A stretch of 60,811 nt of DNA. Origin: Candidatus Parcubacteria bacterium. GTDB taxonomy: Bacteria; Patescibacteriota; Minisyncoccia; Sungbacterales; SURF-37. The notes under the pieces are model-generated. The model was not told the origin of the DNA and did no database searches. It worked only from the letters and a program-made list of their open reading frames with translations. The translations under genes were made by a program, and so were the position numbers. The DNA lies in contig QZJO01000003.1 in NCBI GenBank assembly GCA_003599755.1, forward strand, positions 1 through 60,811, written 5' to 3'. Of this stretch, positions 9,647-17,785 are shown piece by piece; position 1 is the first letter of the stretch, and every line of letters begins with the position of its first letter.

Positions 9647-10012
9647 ATGTCTGACTTTCCGACTCGCGAAACTCCTTGGGGCAAGGAGGTGTTGCTGTGG
9701 GGCGGCCTCGGCGCGCCGGTTACCGTCAAGATTTTGACGGTGAATCCGGGTCAGCGTTTCAGCTTGCAGCGCCATCGGCATCGCATGGAGCACTGGACCG
9801 TGTTATCACCCGAGGGCGGCATCATCCGCATCGGTGACCAAGAGTATCCCGCCGAGCAGGGAAAGGAATTCACGGTGCCGGCCGGCGCGCTGCACCGGAT
9901 GACCGCGCCGCAGGGCGGCGAACTTTCCGTATTGGAAATTGCCACTGGTAAATTCGATCAGGACGATATAGAACGATTGGAGGACGACTACGGGCGCGTA
10001 GCTCAACGGTAG
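9647..10012 (+). CDS. Cupin protein, mannose-6-phosphate isomerase type II C-terminal-like
   Basis: PWG, VKILTVNPGQRFSLQRHRHRMEHW, HRM, DDIERLEDDYGR. Confidence 0.9.
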   Translation: MSDFPTRETPWGKEVLLWGGLGAPVTVKILTVNPGQRFSLQRHRHRMEHWTVLSPEGGIIRIGDQEYPAEQGKEFTVPAGALHRMTAPQGGELSVLEIATGKFDQDDIERLEDDYGRVAQR

Positions 10013-10063
10013 AGCGGTCGCCTTATACGCGACTGGTTCTAGGTTCGAATCCTAGCGCGCCCA
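9992..10063 (+). tRNA. tRNA-Ile(TAT)
   Basis: Cloverleaf GGGCGCG/CGCGCCC-A; arm GTCGC-CTTATAC-GCGAC; GGTTCGAATCC; C4:G69 and A73. Confidence 0.88.
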
Positions 10064-10210: not shown

Positions 10211-11821
10211 ATGCCTATGGTGTCTAAATCGTTGTATCTCAAAGCCGGCAAAGCGGCCGACATCCCTTCGGGATCCGGTCGTTTTCTGTACCGGCTGTTC
10301 GAGATCATTCCCGGCGCGCTCGCTTGGATCACGATCATCGGCATTTTTATCGCGAGCAGATTCGCGCCGCTGGGCGCGAGCATTTTCATCATTGCGTTCG
10401 ACATTTATTGGCTCTTCAAAACGATATTCCTCTCGATCCATTTGCGCCTGGGATATGGAAAGATGCGCGAGCATATGCACATCGATTGGCTTGCGAAGCT
10501 CAGCGATTTGCCGGCGCATCGATATGCGAAGGAGATCGGCGTCGAGCGCTGGGATGACGTATGGCACCTTGTCATCCGCCCATTTTATAAAGAACCCTAT
10601 GAAGTATTGCATGCGAGTTTCGCCTCGCTCGTCGAGCAGCGCTATCCGCATGAAAAAATGATCGTGGTCATCGGCGTCGAAGAGCGCGCCGGATCCGAGG
10701 CGCTCGCCATTGCTGAGCGAATCACGGCCGAATTCAAAGGCAAATTTTTCCGCCTCATCGTCGCTGTGCATCCGGCCGATGTGCCGGGGGAATTGGCAGG
10801 AAAGGGCTCGAACGAAACCTATGCGGCGCGGCGCGCCAAGGAAGAAGTCATCGATCCGCTCGGCATCCCGTATGAGCGGATTATGGTCTCATCGCTCGAC
10901 ATTGATACCGTCCTGCCGCCGGACTACTTCGCGATTCTGACATATCACTTCCTGACCGCCGCGAAGCCGCACCGGAGTTCCTATCAGCCGATTCCGGTCT
11001 ATAACAACAATGTGTGGGAGACGCCGGCCTTCGCGCGCGTGGTCGCGGTCTCGGGTACGTTCTGGCAGACCATGCAGCAGGCGCGGCCCGAGCGCCTGGC
11101 GACGTTCTCGTCGCATTCGATGCCGTTCAAGGCCCTCGTCGAGATGGACTTTTGGAACGTGAACATCGTGTCCGAGGATTCGAGGATTTTTTGGAAGTCG
11201 CTCATGTTTTACGACGGCGATTATCGGACCGTACCGCTGTACTATCCGGTCTACCTCGATGCTAATGTCGGACCGAATGTCTGGGCCACGGTGAAGAACG
11301 TCTACAAGCAGCAGCGCCGGTGGGGTTGGGGCGTGGAAAACGTGCCGTACATGCTCTACGGGTTTTTGCAGAACCGCGCGATTCCTCGGCGGCGCAAACT
11401 GTATTACGCGTTCAACCAACTCGACGGATTCTGGTCCTGGGGCACCAACGCCTTCATCATATTTTTTCTCGGGTGGCTGCCCGTGTGGCTCGGCAGCGAG
11501 GCATTCGGTACCACGCCGCTCGCGTACAATCTGCCGCGCTTCACGCGGTGGATCATGACCGCGTCCATGATCGGCATGATCACTTCAGCCATTTATTCGC
11601 TACGCCTCCTGCCGCCGCGGCCGAAGGGCCACCCGTTCCGGAAATACGCCTGGATGGCGCTGCAGTGGTTGCTGTTGCCGGTCACGATCATTTTTTTCGG
11701 CTCGGTCCCCGGCCTAGAAGCGCAAACGCGCCTCATGCTCGGGCGATACATGGGATTTTGGGTAACTCCTAAATTTAGGAGTAGTTCAAAATCGGAAATA
11801 ATACCCGTTCACTCGAAGTGA
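10211..11821 (+). CDS. Membrane GT2-family glycosyltransferase
   Basis: N- and C-terminal TMs, GKGSN, LDID, SEDSR, QQRRW; start trimmed to M40 of the ORF. Confidence 0.85.
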   Translation: MPMVSKSLYLKAGKAADIPSGSGRFLYRLFEIIPGALAWITIIGIFIASRFAPLGASIFIIAFDIYWLFKTIFLSIHLRLGYGKMREHMHIDWLAKLSDLPAHRYAKEIGVERWDDVWHLVIRPFYKEPYEVLHASFASLVEQRYPHEKMIVVIGVEERAGSEALAIAERITAEFKGKFFRLIVAVHPADVPGELAGKGSNETYAARRAKEEVIDPLGIPYERIMVSSLDIDTVLPPDYFAILTYHFLTAAKPHRSSYQPIPVYNNNVWETPAFARVVAVSGTFWQTMQQARPERLATFSSHSMPFKALVEMDFWNVNIVSEDSRIFWKSLMFYDGDYRTVPLYYPVYLDANVGPNVWATVKNVYKQQRRWGWGVENVPYMLYGFLQNRAIPRRRKLYYAFNQLDGFWSWGTNAFIIFFLGWLPVWLGSEAFGTTPLAYNLPRFTRWIMTASMIGMITSAIYSLRLLPPRPKGHPFRKYAWMALQWLLLPVTIIFFGSVPGLEAQTRLMLGRYMGFWVTPKFRSSSKSEIIPVHSK

Positions 11822-13953
11822 TACTGCCGGTCGATTGCTTGCACACGCTCGGCGAGCAACGGCCATGGCGCCAGATCCGCGTCGCGGGCGACGAGCTCCT
11901 GTGCTTCGGCGCGCGCGGCCTCCACCATTTTGATATTTTTCAGCGCCTCCATGCCGACGTCGGATACGCCCCACTGTTTTGAGCCCGAAAGTTCTCCCGC
12001 ACCGCGAAATTGCAGATCGTATTCGGCAAGTTCGAATCCCGTCTTCGCTTTTCGCAGCGCTTCGAGGCGCCGGGTCTCGCCGCCGTTGGTCGTGAACACG
12101 AAACAATACGATTTGCGCGTGCCGCGACCCACGCGGCCGCGGAACTGGTGCAGTTGGGCAAGGCCGAAGCGTTCGCCGCCTTCGATCATCATGATCGAGG
12201 CGTTCGGCACATCCACGCCGACTTCGATCACCGAGGTCGCGACCAGGATATCCAAATCGCCTTTGCGGAATTTTTGCATCACGGATTCTTTTTCAGTCGG
12301 TTTGAGGCGGCCATGCACTAAGCCGATGCGCAGATCGGGGAATACTTCCTCGGACAATTTTTTGTATTCGGCTTTGGCGGATTTTACTTCAGCCCAATCT
12401 AACTTCGCCTGGCTTTGCGGTTTGCCGGATTCCGCGTCGTCATCCGTATTTTTTTCTTCGATCTTCGGGCAGATCACGAATACCTGGCCGCCGCTTTGGA
12501 CTTCGCGGCGGACCAACGCATAGGTCGCATCGCGCTCTGACGGCGCGATGATGCGCGTTTCGATTGGCTCGCGGCCCGGCGGCATCTCATCCAGAACGCT
12601 GAGATCCAAGTCGCCGTACATGGTAAGCGCGAGCGTACGGGGAATAGGCGTCGCGCTCATGGAAAGAAAGTGGGGCTGCACGCCCTTGGTTGCTTTCTGC
12701 CGCTGTCGCACGCCGAAGCGGTGCTGTTCATCGACGACCGCAAAACCAAGCTTTTTGAATTGCACTTTTTCTTCGATGAGCGCATGTGTGCCAATGAGAA
12801 TCTGGATTTCGCCATCGCGGCACCAGCGGATCATCTGACTTTTCGAAATATGCGTGGCGTCGCGCGGGTTAACTTTTGAAGGAAATTTCTTGGCTTCCGC
12901 GCCGGTCAGAAGGCCGATGCGGATTTTGAACGGCGCGAGGCGTTTGATAAATTCGGCGAAGTGCTGGCGGCTGAGGATTTCGGTCGGCGCAAGATACGCG
13001 ACCTGATAGCCAGCCGCGACTGCGTTGAGCGCGGCAGCTGCGGCGACTAATGTTTTGCCTGATCCGACATCGCCTTCGAGCAGGCGCGCCATGGGGTGTC
13101 GGCGTTCGAAGTCCTTGAGTATGTCTCCGATGGCGCGCTCTTGCGCGCCGGTTAGCGGAAAGGGGAGCGTGCCCAAAAAACGTTTGAGGAGTTCGGTATC
13201 GGTTGGGATGCGGAATGACGGTTCTTTCTCGCGGCGTAAGCGCTCGCGCTGGCGCGAGAGCTGAATGAGAAAAATTTCTTCGAATGAAAACCGTTTGCGC
13301 GCGCCTTCGGCCTCGCCCAAGGTCTTGGGCTGATGAATCGCGCCAAGCGCTCTGGCGAGCGCGGGCAGGTGGTATTTTTGGAGAATTTCGGGCGGAATGG
13401 GATCGGCCAGCGCGCCGATCTCAGACAAAAGTTTCGCAATCGCGTGGCGCAGCCAGCGCGACGTGATGCCGTAACTTTCCGGATATACGGCCAGATACGG
13501 CAGCGCGGCGGTCGTGATTGTCTCGTCATCGGCGAGCGGCTCGTATTCGGGGTTTTGTAGCACGAGCAGGGTTTTGCGCCTGCCCACTTTGCCGGAGAAT
13601 CGGGCGCGCGTGCCGGGCCTGAGCATGTTTGCGACATAGGGCTGGCGGAACCAGACGACATCGAGCGCGCCGGTTTCATCCTGCAGCACGCCTTCGGCCA
13701 TATTCATTTTGCTTTTCCAGGCCTTGCGCGCCTGCAGGCCCACGACCGTCGCGATGATGGAAGCGGTCTCGCCTTCGCGAAGATCCTTGATACGCTTCAG
13801 CCCACCGAGCGATTCGTAGCGTGATGGGAAATGGAATAGAATATCGCGCGCGGTGCGGATGCCGAGTTTGGCGAGTGCCGAGCGCTGCCGCGGCGTGACG
13901 CGGAATACTTGTTCGACGGCTGTTTCCAGGTTTACTGCGGCAAGGGTCGGCAT
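11809..13953 (-). CDS. recG: ATP-dependent DNA helicase RecG
   Basis: GDVGSGKT, VDEQHRFG, MSATPIPRT, QFRGRVGRG; start at ATG 13953. Confidence 0.97.
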   Translation of the reverse strand: MPTLAAVNLETAVEQVFRVTPRQRSALAKLGIRTARDILFHFPSRYESLGGLKRIKDLREGETASIIATVVGLQARKAWKSKMNMAEGVLQDETGALDVVWFRQPYVANMLRPGTRARFSGKVGRRKTLLVLQNPEYEPLADDETITTAALPYLAVYPESYGITSRWLRHAIAKLLSEIGALADPIPPEILQKYHLPALARALGAIHQPKTLGEAEGARKRFSFEEIFLIQLSRQRERLRREKEPSFRIPTDTELLKRFLGTLPFPLTGAQERAIGDILKDFERRHPMARLLEGDVGSGKTLVAAAAALNAVAAGYQVAYLAPTEILSRQHFAEFIKRLAPFKIRIGLLTGAEAKKFPSKVNPRDATHISKSQMIRWCRDGEIQILIGTHALIEEKVQFKKLGFAVVDEQHRFGVRQRQKATKGVQPHFLSMSATPIPRTLALTMYGDLDLSVLDEMPPGREPIETRIIAPSERDATYALVRREVQSGGQVFVICPKIEEKNTDDDAESGKPQSQAKLDWAEVKSAKAEYKKLSEEVFPDLRIGLVHGRLKPTEKESVMQKFRKGDLDILVATSVIEVGVDVPNASIMMIEGGERFGLAQLHQFRGRVGRGTRKSYCFVFTTNGGETRRLEALRKAKTGFELAEYDLQFRGAGELSGSKQWGVSDVGMEALKNIKMVEAARAEAQELVARDADLAPWPLLAERVQAIDRQYHFE

Positions 13954-14044
13954 GCGTCGGTGGTCAGCTTGAGTATATACTATACAGCGGTGGCGGCTGG
14001 CGTTCGCAGGGGCGCAACGGCTTAGCCAAGAACAGGAGTGTAGC

Positions 14045-14365
14045 ATGGAATGGGGTGTTGTCTGCGCGATATGCGGCAGACGATTTCTTCAAGGAGACCA
14101 AGCGGTATTTGAGGGATCATCGTTCGTGCATCAGGCCTGCTTCGGGCCCGTGCAGCGGGCGTTTACGGTCCTTCGCGTACTGCGCGAGATCGCGGGCGGC
14201 GCGGGCATCTGCTATGCGTGCCTCGCGTTGCGACTTCCGTCCTGGGAAGACGGTGAGTTGCAGCGTGCGGTGTTCTGGCTTCGCGGGCAAGGCAGGATCA
14301 GCGTGCATACGGAGCACTGTCCGGTATGCGCAAAGCGCCGCTCGCTTGTCGCCGCGAGGCCGTGA
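14045..14365 (+). CDS. Small Cys-rich hypothetical protein with two putative Zn sites
   Basis: CAIC..HQAC and CYAC..CPVC; AGGAG upstream. Confidence 0.55.
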   Translation: MEWGVVCAICGRRFLQGDQAVFEGSSFVHQACFGPVQRAFTVLRVLREIAGGAGICYACLALRLPSWEDGELQRAVFWLRGQGRISVHTEHCPVCAKRRSLVAARP

Positions 14366-14585: not shown

Positions 14586-15722
14586 TTATGTAAGATCTGA
14601 ATCGGAACGCTGCGGTTCGTGCGATGCAGCCGCCGCGCCGGGATTTGTTCGCACGAGAAATAGCGTGGCCGTTACCGTAGAGATCGGCACGGCAAGCACC
14701 GCGCCGATGCTGCCGACAATCATGCGGATGATCTCGGCAGTGAACGGTTCGCGATTGATAGTGACGAGCAATGGCGCCTCGGATTGGTAGAGCAACAAGA
14801 GGAGCGGAAGTGCCGCGCCGACGTAGACGAGGGCGAGCGTGTTGATGAGCGCGGCGACGTGTTCGCGGCCGATTTTGATGGCCCGCGCGTAGATTTCCCG
14901 GCGTGTGAGCGCGGGATTCGCGCGGTGCAATTCCTCGACTGCCGAGGCCTGGGTGATGGCGATATCGTCAAGTACGCCGAGCACGCCGATGAGAATGGCG
15001 GCAAGAAACAGCCCCGAAAAATCCAAGCGACCCTGTGTATTGAAATTGAGATATACCGAATATTCCTCCGTGAATCCGGACATGTTGACCGACGCGACGG
15101 CGATCTGGGCCAGTACGACCGTGATGAGGACGGCAGAGAGTGTGCCGATAAGCGTCGCGACCGACTTGCGATTGATGCCATACGTGACGAAGATCGCCGC
15201 GGTCAGGATTGCAGCCGCAACGCCGGCACTCGTCCACAGGGGCGAGGCGCCGTCGAGCAGTTGCGGGAAGAGCACGAAAAATATGAGCGCGATGCCGCCG
15301 CCGAGCGCGGCAAGGGAGCGCACGCCTTGTCCGCGGCCGAACACGGCGACGACGGCAATGAAGAGCAGAAGGAATCCGAGGAGCGCAAGCCGGCGGTCCG
15401 GTTCGCCGACCGAATAGAGTTCCTCGCCGTTGACGGTGACGATGTAATCGAGAAAGAATCGATCGCCGACGCCGAGCTTCGCGTAGTCATTGCCGACGGT
15501 AATGATCTCGCCTCGCTTCGGGCCTTCCAATAGCTCAACGCGCAGGGTCTGGAAGTGCGTGCGCGTGCTCGTGCCGGGAATGAGCCGCTCCTCTTCCCGG
15601 ACGACTTCAACGACGCGCGCCCGCCACGTGGTCTCGGAGGCCTCGGGGAGCTCCTGGGCAGTGGTGCTGAGCGGTCCGCCGATCGCGAGGAGCAGTGCGC
15701 CGATAAGCAATACGGTTCGCAT
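14586..15722 (-). CDS. YibE/F-family multi-pass membrane protein
   Basis: GVLDDIAITQAS, GREHVAALINTL, FTAEIIRMIVGSIG; multiple TMs. Confidence 0.9.
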   Translation of the reverse strand: MRTVLLIGALLLAIGGPLSTTAQELPEASETTWRARVVEVVREEERLIPGTSTRTHFQTLRVELLEGPKRGEIITVGNDYAKLGVGDRFFLDYIVTVNGEELYSVGEPDRRLALLGFLLLFIAVVAVFGRGQGVRSLAALGGGIALIFFVLFPQLLDGASPLWTSAGVAAAILTAAIFVTYGINRKSVATLIGTLSAVLITVVLAQIAVASVNMSGFTEEYSVYLNFNTQGRLDFSGLFLAAILIGVLGVLDDIAITQASAVEELHRANPALTRREIYARAIKIGREHVAALINTLALVYVGAALPLLLLLYQSEAPLLVTINREPFTAEIIRMIVGSIGAVLAVPISTVTATLFLVRTNPGAAAASHEPQRSDSDLT

Positions 15723-15791
15723 GTTCGTAAGTGTAGCATGGCAGCTATTGCCGCCCGCGCATGAGTATGCAATACTGAGGAAAATCGAATA

Positions 15792-15959
15792 GGACATCAA
15801 GAGTGCGGAGATTTACCCGCCTAAATTTCGAAAGAAATTTGGAAGGGTGAAAGGGAATTGGCCCAATGCTCCGCCCGCAACTTGCCCCGGCATTGAGGAA
15901 GCCCCTCGACAAGCTCGGGGTAAAGTGCGAAATCCAACCCTGCAAGGGGGAAGATGTGC
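15792..15959 (+). ncRNA. SAM-I (S-box) riboswitch aptamer, variant with insertions
   Basis: P1 ACATC/GATGT; ATCAAGAG 15796; AGGGAATTGGCCC 15852; GCAACT 15877 / AGTGC 15924; GAAATCC; P4 CCCT-GCAA-GGGG; AAGATG. Confidence 0.8.
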
Positions 15960-15974
15960 ACGAAAGAACACGGC

Positions 15975-16006
15975 ACCGCCTTTGCAGGGCGGTTGTTTTG
16001 TTCTTT
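15975..16006 (+). terminator. Riboswitch expression-platform terminator
   Basis: ACCGCC/GGCGGT stem then TGTTTTGTTCTTT; CCTTTGCAGGG can alternatively pair with the P4 region CCCTGCAAGG. Confidence 0.7.
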
Positions 16007-16023
16007 GAAAGGAGGAGGTAGCG

Positions 16024-16584
16024 ATGGAAGAGCGAATCTACTACCGCGTAGAGAAGGGGAACATTCGATTTGAGTTTGATAGGGATGAGCATGTTCCGAG
16101 CAGACGGCATCCACGCACGTATCGGCACTATCATGTTTCCGGAATCGTGCCTTCCGCCGTAGTTCGTCAAGGGGAGCCCGCCGTTCGGCGTTATGCCGAA
16201 CGGTTCGTACAGCGAGAAATCGGTCGCCAGAAAGCGGCGGATCGCCGATACGATGAGCGGCTCAAAACACTGGACATCCCCATCGTGGTCATGCACGGAA
16301 GCGTGCGACTGGTCGGCCGTGTTCGTTGGTCCGAGACCGAGGATTCCTTCGTTTTGCTGCTGGAAAAACCCGTGCAACGCGAGATCGTTTGGTCGTACGG
16401 CCGAGGATTCGGCGCTGCCATGGCCGGGAAACGGGTGCTTGAGAGATGGAACCTTACCGCAAATGCGCGGCGGGCTGCGGAAGCGGAACTGATCCTCGCC
16501 TTCGAGCAGCAGCGCCCCAACAGCCCTCATAATCTCGTCGAGCGTCTCAATCGCAACGCCGCACCCGAGAAGGAGAAGCAATGA
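16024..16584 (+). CDS. Hypothetical protein, first gene after the SAM-I riboswitch
   Basis: AAGGAGGAGG SD; 186 aa; no motif recognised. Confidence 0.75.
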   Translation: MEERIYYRVEKGNIRFEFDRDEHVPSRRHPRTYRHYHVSGIVPSAVVRQGEPAVRRYAERFVQREIGRQKAADRRYDERLKTLDIPIVVMHGSVRLVGRVRWSETEDSFVLLLEKPVQREIVWSYGRGFGAAMAGKRVLERWNLTANARRAAEAELILAFEQQRPNSPHNLVERLNRNAAPEKEKQ

Positions 16585-17195
16585 TGCTTGAGATCAAGTT
16601 CCCGGACGAGAAAAACCGTTCGCGCGCAGCCATGGTTTTGCGCCTTGCCGCGCATGAGGTTGTGCTGGGACAGCGGTGGGAGCGGCTGCAGGTGACCGAC
16701 CAGATGCTTCCGGTACTCGCGCTGCACGACATTCGGTACGAGATCGTGAGCGAGCAGGAGCTCGCCGACGAGGCCGCGGAGTACGAGCGGCTGATCAGCG
16801 GCGCGGTGCTCTTCGATCTTCGGGAGCACGCCTACCCGAGCCGCCGCGGCGATTCGTTCCGGAGTTTGCAGGTGTTCGAGTGCTGGGTGTGCCGTGCTCA
16901 GACAAATCGGGTAGTGATGGGCGGATGGCCCGGACTCGGCGTTCGTGCTCCTTGCCCGAACGCGATCGAATGCTGGCACCATGAGCTGGAGAGCACGATC
17001 AACTGGTCGCGGCGGCCGCATCCGGAATCCGTCAAGCGCGAGTTGGAGCATGAAATCGCGGCGTTGCGCGCCTTTCATGCCGCCGATATCAAAAACGATA
17101 TCGCGGGCACGCCGGACTTCGCGCTGAAGCGCAGCGTCACCAATACGATGGGCCATAAGCGGGGCTGTGGCTGTACGCATTGGCTGCGTTGGTGA
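16581..17195 (+). CDS. Hypothetical Cys/His-rich protein, possible metal binder
   Basis: ATGA coupling; CWVC, CPNAIECWHH, HKRGCGCTH. Confidence 0.75.
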   Translation: MMLEIKFPDEKNRSRAAMVLRLAAHEVVLGQRWERLQVTDQMLPVLALHDIRYEIVSEQELADEAAEYERLISGAVLFDLREHAYPSRRGDSFRSLQVFECWVCRAQTNRVVMGGWPGLGVRAPCPNAIECWHHELESTINWSRRPHPESVKRELEHEIAALRAFHAADIKNDIAGTPDFALKRSVTNTMGHKRGCGCTHWLRW

Positions 17196-17202
17196 ATGCA
17201 AT

Positions 17203-17233
17203 AACCGGGAGCGACGAGATGTCGCTCCCGGTT
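17203..17233. terminator. Bidirectional terminator between convergent genes
   Basis: 13-bp stem AACCGGGAGCGAC/GTCGCTCCCGGTT. Confidence 0.7.
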
Positions 17234-17257: not shown

Positions 17258-17785
17258 CTATGCACGCATCTTGTTGTAGAAACTCCAAGAATACCAGGCG
17301 AGAAATCCCAGTCCGGCTCCGTTTACCACGAGCGCAATTCCGCTGGCCGTAAGATCCCCGTTGCTATCCAGAAATAGAATATTCAGAACTTGATACGTTC
17401 GATACGAAACGTATACGACGCCGATCAGCGTTATGAGGAATAAACTTTTGCGAATTTTCTTTTTAAAATTGAGATCTTCTATATTCGCAGGATTCGAAGC
17501 CAACATGCGCTGCAGCCGTCGGTTCGCGAAGAGGAATATAGGCAAGAGCGGTATGGCGACCGAAACAAATACGACAATCGAAAGTCCCATGTCCGAGGGT
17601 CGTCCGAACGAATTTTTGAGAACTTCTTGCACGGCATTCGCGAGGAAGTATACGAGCGCCCATAATGCCCCGAGGGCGATATGCGCCGCGAAGCTTAGCC
17701 GCGAATCCGCTTTTACGATATTTACCGCCGGTTGCGGAGCAATCGATGCGGGAGGTACTGGCGAAGCGCCGGGTTCGTTATTCAT
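17258..17785 (-). CDS. Four-TM hypothetical membrane protein
   Basis: Four hydrophobic segments in 175 aa. Confidence 0.7.
   Translation of the reverse strand: MNNEPGASPVPPASIAPQPAVNIVKADSRLSFAAHIALGALWALVYFLANAVQEVLKNSFGRPSDMGLSIVVFVSVAIPLLPIFLFANRRLQRMLASNPANIEDLNFKKKIRKSLFLITLIGVVYVSYRTYQVLNILFLDSNGDLTASGIALVVNGAGLGFLAWYSWSFYNKMRA

Follow-up and report, generated by a model that had tools for sequence, protein, structure and literature searches.

Analysis of the window, a 60,811 nucleotide (nt) stretch of Candidatus Parcubacteria bacterium DNA (contig QZJO01000003.1), revealed a SAM-I-type leader followed by a two-gene operon, which together occupy positions 15792 to 17233. The 298-nt leader is very probably a functional S-adenosylmethionine (SAM) riboswitch of the SAM-I (S-box) class, acting by transcription termination as an OFF switch. 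The two open reading frames (ORFs) behind it, ORF1 and ORF2, encode proteins of two conserved families that carry no annotation. Since both families recur behind SAM-I elements elsewhere, they probably belong to a SAM-starvation regulon, as undescribed parts of the response to SAM shortage, and the OFF logic implies that the proteins are wanted when SAM is scarce.

An earlier note on this DNA had listed the landmarks of an S-box aptamer, and reading of the sequence found every one of them where it had been placed. The features of the locus, all on the forward (+) strand, are given below; those of the aptamer without a stated basis were read from the sequence.

15748–15776, +: promoter-like site, TTGCCG (−35-like), 17-nt spacer, extended −10 TGcAATACT
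15792–15959, +: SAM-I (S-box) aptamer, four-way junction P1–P4 (RF00162 match, minimum free energy (MFE) fold, hand alignment)
15794–15798 / 15953–15957, +: P1, ACAUC / GAUGU
between P1 and P2, +: J1/2, AAGAG
15805–15810 / 15869–15874, +: P2a, GCGGAG / CUCCGC
15812–15851, +: 40-nt hairpin in the 5′ strand of P2, between P2a and P2b (folds alone at −18.5 kcal/mol)
beyond the hairpin, +: P2b, AGGGAAUUGGCCC; GGG/CCC enclosing the loop AAUUGG
15858–15861, +: P2 loop UUGG, 5′ half of the pseudoknot, complementary to CCAA 15934–15937
15877–15881 / 15925–15928, +: base of P3, GCAAC / GUGC
15883–15922, +: extended distal P3, about 30 nt above the consensus length (Rfam alignment, fold)
between P3 and P4, +: J3/4, AAAUCC
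15938–15948, +: P4, CCCU/AGGG
15938–15989, +: antiterminator, 15938–15948 (P4 strand) with 15979–15989 and 15956–15962 (3′ strand of P1) with 15971–15976 (MFE)
15963–16006, +: intrinsic terminator, core stem 15975–15982 / 15986–15993, then UGUUUUGUUCUUU (terminator scan, fold)
16010–16018, +: Shine-Dalgarno (SD) sequence AGGAGGAGG, with AGGAGG, 6–8 nt upstream of ORF1
16024–16584, +: ORF1, 186 amino acids (aa), member of an uncharacterised family of about 180 aa (homologs, AlphaFold2)
16581–17195, +: ORF2, 204 aa, ferredoxin-like domain 1–72 and Cys/His-rich domain about 77–204 (homologs, AlphaFold2)
17203–17233, +: closing 13-bp GC-rich hairpin after the ORF2 stop (sequence read)

Folding of 15792–15959 alone with ViennaRNA gave as the MFE structure a four-way junction with P1, P2a/P2b, P3 and P4 (−72.8 kcal/mol), and the folding energy of the whole leader lay at z = −5.4 relative to shuffled sequences. 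In a permissive Rfam scan of both strands of 15650–16100 (a 451-nt search), RF00162, the SAM-I model, was the sole family matched, with 25.6 bits and E = 0.0015, a score below its gathering threshold; the check proposed in the earlier note thus returned the expected family at a sub-threshold score. MAFFT put P2a, P4 and the 3′ strand of P1 of the related leaders out of register, with or without the inserts, so our own covariance model was dropped, and hand alignment and per-sequence folding were used instead. The consensus for the hand alignment was that of Rfam as it appears in the RF00162 alignments of the window and of the leaders of a group of homologous loci (L002). Forty of the 48 strongly conserved (upper-case) consensus positions agree. 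Of the eight mismatches, six are accounted for by three compensatory pairs (U:A to A:U in P1, G:C to C:G in P2a and C:G to U:A in P3), and the other two are the 2b and 3b adenines of the kink turn (K-turn). The conserved core of SAM-I was found throughout: AUC/GAU of P1, AAGAG of J1/2, AGGGA..GGCCC, GCAAC, GGUGC and AAnnCC of J3/4. In SAM-I crystal structures the nucleotides that contact SAM lie in AUC/GAU of P1 (the AU), AAGAG of J1/2 and the GCAAC and GUGC stretches, all of which are intact in the window. The core is also nearly identical to that of leaders of homologous genes that pass the Rfam threshold (46.3, 52.5 and 67.1 bits).

Downstream of the aptamer, the strands of P1 and P4 compete with an intrinsic terminator, the arrangement of a SAM-I expression platform. 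A terminator with an alternative pairing had been proposed earlier, and both parts were found, as the stem 15975–15993 and an antiterminator exclusive of it. The terminator hairpin folded alone at −22.2 kcal/mol, with a U-rich tail after the stem. The antiterminator is the MFE structure of the full leader and of 15930–15995 (−28.7 kcal/mol), and is mutually exclusive with P1, P4 and the terminator stem. When P1 was enforced, the aptamer was kept and the terminator hairpin 15963–16006 was added, which is also the unconstrained MFE fold of that stretch. Aptamer, hairpin and U-run are all present in five out of five related leaders. In the proposed mechanism, abundant SAM would occupy the aptamer and hold P1 and P4 of its four-way junction in place, so that the hairpin 15975–15993 and its U-tract would terminate transcription ahead of ORF1. 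With little SAM, the 5′ half of the terminator would be taken up by pairing with the P4 strand and with the 3′ strand of P1 (15938–15962 with 15971–15989), and the antiterminator thus formed would allow RNA polymerase to read through to the translationally coupled ORF1 and ORF2.

The −10-like motif of the earlier note is present as TGCAATACT at 15768–15776, with the TTGCCG hexamer 17 nt upstream. As a promoter the pair scores 8/12, under the scan cut-off of 9/12, and the site is therefore regarded as plausible only. Clear TTGACA-type boxes lie immediately upstream of P1 in the L002, L015, L021 and L047 leaders. The divergent upstream neighbour of the riboswitch (14586–15725, minus strand) encodes a membrane protein of the YibE/F family (Pfam E = 9e-68). 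As about 45 nt separate the start of this gene from the promoter-like site, both promoters probably share the intergenic region.

Homologs of both genes were found behind SAM-I leaders in other genomes: relatives of ORF2 in four other lineages, and a relative of ORF1 in one. The possibility, raised as a refutation in the earlier note, that homologs are never linked to a riboswitch is thus false, and its idea of unknown SAM-responsive functions gains support from the recurrence of SAM-I before both families. The linked loci, with the score of each leader against RF00162, are as follows.

L002, L003, L004, L017 and L018: ORF2 family, 46.3 bits, above threshold; aptamer core nearly identical to that of the window
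L021: ORF2 family, 67.1 bits; a homolog with a different N-terminal zinc ribbon, followed by a MoxR-like AAA ATPase
L015 (Uhrbacteria): ORF2 family, 38.0 bits; leads a three-gene operon (333 aa, 106 aa, ORF2 homolog)
L051: ORF2 family, 52.5 bits; heads three small genes and the ORF2 homolog (four-gene operon)
L047: ORF1 family, 41.4 bits; the ORF1 homolog comes fifth among the genes behind the riboswitch

Three of the four other ORF2-linked leaders exceed the Rfam threshold. With the window counted in both, SAM-I linkage was seen in five of about 21 ORF2-family lineages and in two of the six ORF1-family loci examined. Three members, including that of the window, bear the N-terminal domain of ORF2; two have the switch, and the remaining locus, L005, is truncated on its upstream side. 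In the poorly resolved family tree the linked ORF2 members lie scattered, which indicates that the link has been kept or gained repeatedly. ORF1 and ORF2 occur together in the window only, and in this genome alone does ORF1 stand between the leader and ORF2. Pairing is conserved between leaders through covariation: the pseudoknot changes from UUGG:CCAA to CUGA:UCAG in L015, and P2b from GGG:CCC to GAG:CUC in L047. All-against-all BLASTP of the riboswitch-led operons found no shared family except ORF1, ORF2 and paralogs of the ORF2 N-terminal domain. The leaders of the L002 group, L015, L021 and L051 (ORF2) and of L047 (ORF1) are like that of the window in riboswitch class, in terminator design and in the protein families they regulate, and differ from it in operon partners.

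Several observations were made on these and other loci of the families. In L021 (374–2279) the ORF2 homolog, with its N-terminal CxxC...C zinc ribbon, overlaps the gene of the MoxR-like AAA ATPase (AAA_5, bpMoxR) by 47 nt. The five small genes behind SAM-I in L047 (337–5427) encode proteins of 107, 102, 158, 241 and 193 aa, the last being the ORF1 homolog, with no detectable family; they are followed by a ZIP metal permease and an ABC transporter. The four-gene cluster of L051 (78–3810) has a multi-pass membrane protein of 304 aa on one side and a Lactamase_B (metallo-beta-lactamase) protein on the other; judged by eye, the flanks resemble the N- and C-terminal parts of ComEC-type proteins, as if the cassette were within or between comEC halves. 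Among riboswitch-less ORF2 homologs, no shared structured element was visible by eye in the leaders. Six of these riboswitch-less homologs (L016, L026, L034, L035, L013 and L044) have in common a short motif, (G)TAC(C)TTTGACA / TTTACA, 10–25 nt before the SD sequence, which could serve as a small operator or as a promoter element lying very near the gene.

The P2 helix of the window departs from that of known SAM-I aptamers at the K-turn. The 40-nt hairpin at 15812–15851 consists of 7 bp, a 3x3 internal loop, 8–9 bp and a GAAA loop, after which A15852 leads to P2b, and it converts the K-turn site to a three-way junction. It sits between A15811 (1n) and the C-helix strand GGG 15853–15855, opposite the AAU bulge (15865–15867) of the other P2 strand, which retains CCC-AAU-G. 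The combination of a 3-nt bulge with tandem G·A / A·G pairs that makes a standard K-turn is not found here, the 2b nucleotide being C15869, paired with G15810. As C15869 and U15870 pair with G15810 and A15809 in place of the tandem sheared pairs, only G15868·A15811 is left of the tandem G·A. The L002 and L015 leaders likewise lack the K-turn in P2; a loop of 6 nt (UGCUAA / UGCCAA) takes the place at which the window carries the hairpin. L021, L047 and L051 have canonical K-turns. Recurrence of a K-turn-less P2 with an extra loop, both in the threshold-passing L002 leaders and in L015, indicates a maintained sub-type. No second copy of the P2 or P3 insert was found within the window.

A pk-turn can stand in for the K-turn of SAM-I without loss of SAM binding (PMC3672288), and in a k-junction, known from thiamine pyrophosphate riboswitches, the K-turn is expanded into a three-way junction (PMC5061560). 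Common to these and to P2 of the window is a site whose job is to kink a helix for a tertiary contact of its loop. The inserted helix by which a k-junction is defined (PMC5061560) is present as the hairpin 15812–15851. Of the tandem trans sugar-Hoogsteen G·A and A·G pairs of a k-junction, the window keeps only the 1b·1n G·A pair, 2b·2n being a C–G Watson-Crick pair. The variant P2 would presumably still kink, so that its loop UUGG could reach CCAA of J3/4 for the pseudoknot. The aptamer would then be a natural SAM-I riboswitch with a k-junction-like three-way junction in place of the K-turn, of which we found no description. None was met in the literature searches, though no search was aimed at exactly that point. 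We know of no k-junction described in SAM-I.

Compared with the SAM-I/S-box class as a whole (RF00162; yitJ and metK of Bacillus subtilis, metF of Thermoanaerobacter tengcongensis), the leader is alike in the P1–P4 junction, AAGAG, GCAAC/GUGC, the pseudoknot between the P2 loop and J3/4, and the terminator/antiterminator OFF platform. It differs in its sub-gathering score, its one G·A pair, the 40-nt helix opposite the bulge and a P3 about 30 nt longer. The genes it leads also differ, being of two uncharacterised families and not methionine (Met), cysteine or SAM genes.

ORF1 and ORF2 overlap in ATGA. The existence of homologs and the confident AlphaFold2 models (predicted local distance difference test scores of 93.5 for ORF1 and 88.9 for ORF2) establish that the genes are real. 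The proteins had been called orphans in the earlier note; both in fact belong to conserved families. For ORF1, an exhaustive HMMER search gave 79 cluster representatives at E ≤ 1e-3, including 25 at E ≤ 1e-10; a word-indexed homolog search with this protein found nothing. The ORF2 search, in a collection of 5.8 billion proteins, gave 21 homologs, and extra loci came from genomes and metagenomes. The family is defined by a Cys/His-rich domain of about 130 aa; most homologs are of about this length and match residues about 72–204 of ORF2. The named relatives come from metagenome-assembled genomes (MAGs) of Patescibacteria (Yanofskybacteria, Uhrbacteria and Parcubacteria), and two MAGs carry their submitters' label Gammaproteobacteria. 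The operon is closed by the 13-bp hairpin at 17203–17233, common to it and to a convergent gene (17258–17785, minus strand). The hairpin had been noted earlier as a terminator; it is present, and was left uncalled by the terminator scan because its T-run is weak.

The ORF2 family motif is YDxxxxxYPxxRGDxFRSLQVFECxVC..TNxVVMGG..G.R..CP....CWHHE ... KNDIxGxPD ... CxH. The Cys/His clusters that had been remarked on in ORF2 proved to be conserved, with eight invariant or nearly invariant residues (C101, C104, C125, C131, H133, H134, C198 and H200). This pattern suggests one or two metal sites together with an active site in a predicted zinc protein, and the many invariant polar residues suggest an enzyme. 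The first 70 or so residues, the ferredoxin-like domain, are shared with L005 and L051 only. Foldseek likened the N-terminal 60 or so residues to generic ferredoxin-like domains (UreE C-domain, PstA) at E about 0.2–0.9. Standalone paralogs of this domain, of 63–92 aa, stand directly upstream of the ORF2 homolog in L005 (133–675) and L051 (1366–1907), with E-values that come from the tiny database of the all-against-all BLASTP. Since these are the two closest relatives, the arrangement suggests that the small N-terminal domain works with the Cys/His domain. Family members of about 218 aa were also seen (L008, 3001–3657; L040; P0019), in which an internal insertion duplicates the CxxC...C..WH zinc module.

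Searches of Pfam, NCBIfam, PADLOC and PHROGs gave no match for ORF1 or ORF2, and nothing consistent across all family members. Profile search of the PDB gave none for ORF2 and two chance-level matches for ORF1 (E 0.34 and 0.51), and Foldseek against the PDB and BFVD gave no match at E ≤ 0.001. The absence of Pfam, NCBIfam, PDB profile and Foldseek matches bears out the earlier statement that neither protein resembles Met/SAM gene products; no similarity to MetK, MetE/H, MetNIQ, Mtn enzymes, LuxS and the like was found by sequence or fold. No member of the ORF2 family was found on the viral contigs searched; the ORF1 alignment is too variable for such a scan. An HNH/EndoVII (AHH) nuclease was considered for the ORF2 family, three members of which gave weak AHH matches (best E 0.025). 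It was rejected, as the two members inspected, P0006 and P0007 (E 0.03–0.05), align a helical stretch after CWHH to profile positions 68–98, outside the catalytic motif. Both products are cytosolic and belong to two uncharacterised families.

A number of findings weigh against assigning the leader to SAM-I and its genes to a SAM-starvation regulon. The RF00162 score of 25.6 bits is far under the gathering score of 44.4. A scan of the whole window at Rfam gathering thresholds listed six tRNAs only, the element being absent from it because of this score. We attribute the low score to the 40-nt GAAA-capped hairpin in P2 and the long P3. The RF00162 alignment begins at 15835, within the P2 insert, so that the real P1 and P2a are lost; the mis-placement of P1 by the model is likewise attributed to the hairpin. 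P1 is merely 5 bp long, and the canonical tandem G·A of the K-turn is absent from P2. About 16 of the 21 ORF2-family lineages and four of the six ORF1 loci examined have no riboswitch, and many of the riboswitch-less homologs have short leaders with a −10-like box near the SD sequence, from which we take SAM control to be common and not obligatory. Neither homology nor fold nor conserved neighbours connect ORF1 or ORF2 with Met/SAM chemistry, and in the search for transcripts the sequence was found in soil-metagenome DNA runs only.

Some of these points would fit a stranded or decaying SAM-I, in which the P2 and P3 insertions had inactivated the leader, ORF1 and ORF2 had replaced a Met/SAM gene, and expression had become constitutive or constitutively terminated. 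The sub-threshold score, the non-canonical K-turn, the size of the two insertions and the position of ORF1, unique to this genome, could all be read in this way. Decay, however, would not be expected to leave consensus mismatches that are compensatory and not random, nor to spare the pseudoknot, the ligand-contact stretches, the terminator and the antiterminator. Moreover, the K-turn-less P2 with an extra loop is found again in L002, which passes the threshold, and in L015, as befits a maintained sub-type, and the gene family is riboswitch-linked in four other lineages; we therefore hold a stranded element to be very unlikely. The unusual P2 architecture and regulated genes unlike any member of a SAM-I regulon could also point to a changed ligand, the remodelled aptamer sensing a relative of SAM (S-adenosylhomocysteine, methylthioadenosine, decarboxylated SAM or similar) and the operon handling that metabolite. 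This we give hardly any credence, because the core of the SAM pocket is unchanged, the changes are confined to the periphery (K-turn and distal P3), and the leaders of homologous genes in L021 (67.1 bits) and L051 (52.5 bits) are ordinary SAM-I elements with canonical K-turns.

As to the proteins, the reading we prefer, and hold tentatively, is a role in obtaining or recycling methionine or SAM, in which ORF2 would be a zinc-dependent enzyme or chaperone. A rival that concerns protein function only is a non-metabolic module for stress or alarm, such as an effector of defence or dormancy that responds to a crash of the SAM pool caused by phage SAM-degrading enzymes or lost host supply. Expression at low SAM only, as an OFF switch would give, would suit such a module; the proteins show neither metabolic homology nor a PDB fold match; their operon partners are small lineage-specific proteins that differ greatly from locus to locus, and in one case the homolog is coupled to an AAA ATPase of MoxR type. 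On the other hand, PADLOC and PHROGs gave no match for either protein, and no ORF2-family member was found on viral contigs. Most homologs stand alone in a housekeeping neighbourhood, behind seemingly ordinary promoters, and toxin-like or immunity-like partners are not conserved. An alarm module thus seems unlikely. A role in Met/SAM supply stays the preferred reading. A wider proposal, which we regard as speculative, takes the ORF1 family and the Cys/His-rich domain of ORF2, with its ferredoxin-like partner domain, as new-fold effectors of a SAM-starvation response so far seen mainly in Patescibacteria, and the leader as a k-junction-like SAM-I. The effectors could be new enzymes or chaperones by which organisms without the textbook pathways regenerate or scavenge Met/SAM, or else a riboswitch-gated alarm; in the latter form the alarm could fire once the SAM pool is depleted by loss of host supply or by a phage SAM-degrading enzyme.

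The taxonomy of the relatives, which are Patescibacteria MAGs, suggests that the host is a minimal, probably ultra-small organism. Assignment to Patescibacteria was based on these labels and on the gene content of the window, which includes FtsH, RecG, ATP-dependent ligase, GatA, trigger factor, H+-PPase and NusA. A tRNA gene at 9992–10063 has the anticodon loop CUUAUAC with the anticodon UAU (AUA-reading tRNA-Ile type; Rfam alignment). An ORF of 106 aa at 14045–14365 has CxxC...C and C..C motifs and weak zinc-finger Pfam matches. The gene recG (11809–14046, minus strand) is divergent from it, and the last two bases of the recG start codon coincide with the first two of this ORF.

In the literature searched, no paper combining SAM riboswitches with Patescibacteria or the candidate phyla radiation (CPR) was found. 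Riboswitches are among the few regulators whose signal is legible in the sequence, and they thereby place a functional label on the genes behind them. Here an element missed at the standard Rfam threshold bears on the sensitivity of covariance-model annotation, and the candidate swap of a helical junction for the SAM-I K-turn bears on the rules of RNA folding. Two conserved families without annotation, Pfam model or relative of solved structure thereby receive the label of being needed at low SAM. Found in five ORF2 and two ORF1 lineages, the link offers a testable entry to these dark-matter proteins and to the way in which epibionts manage their methyl donor.

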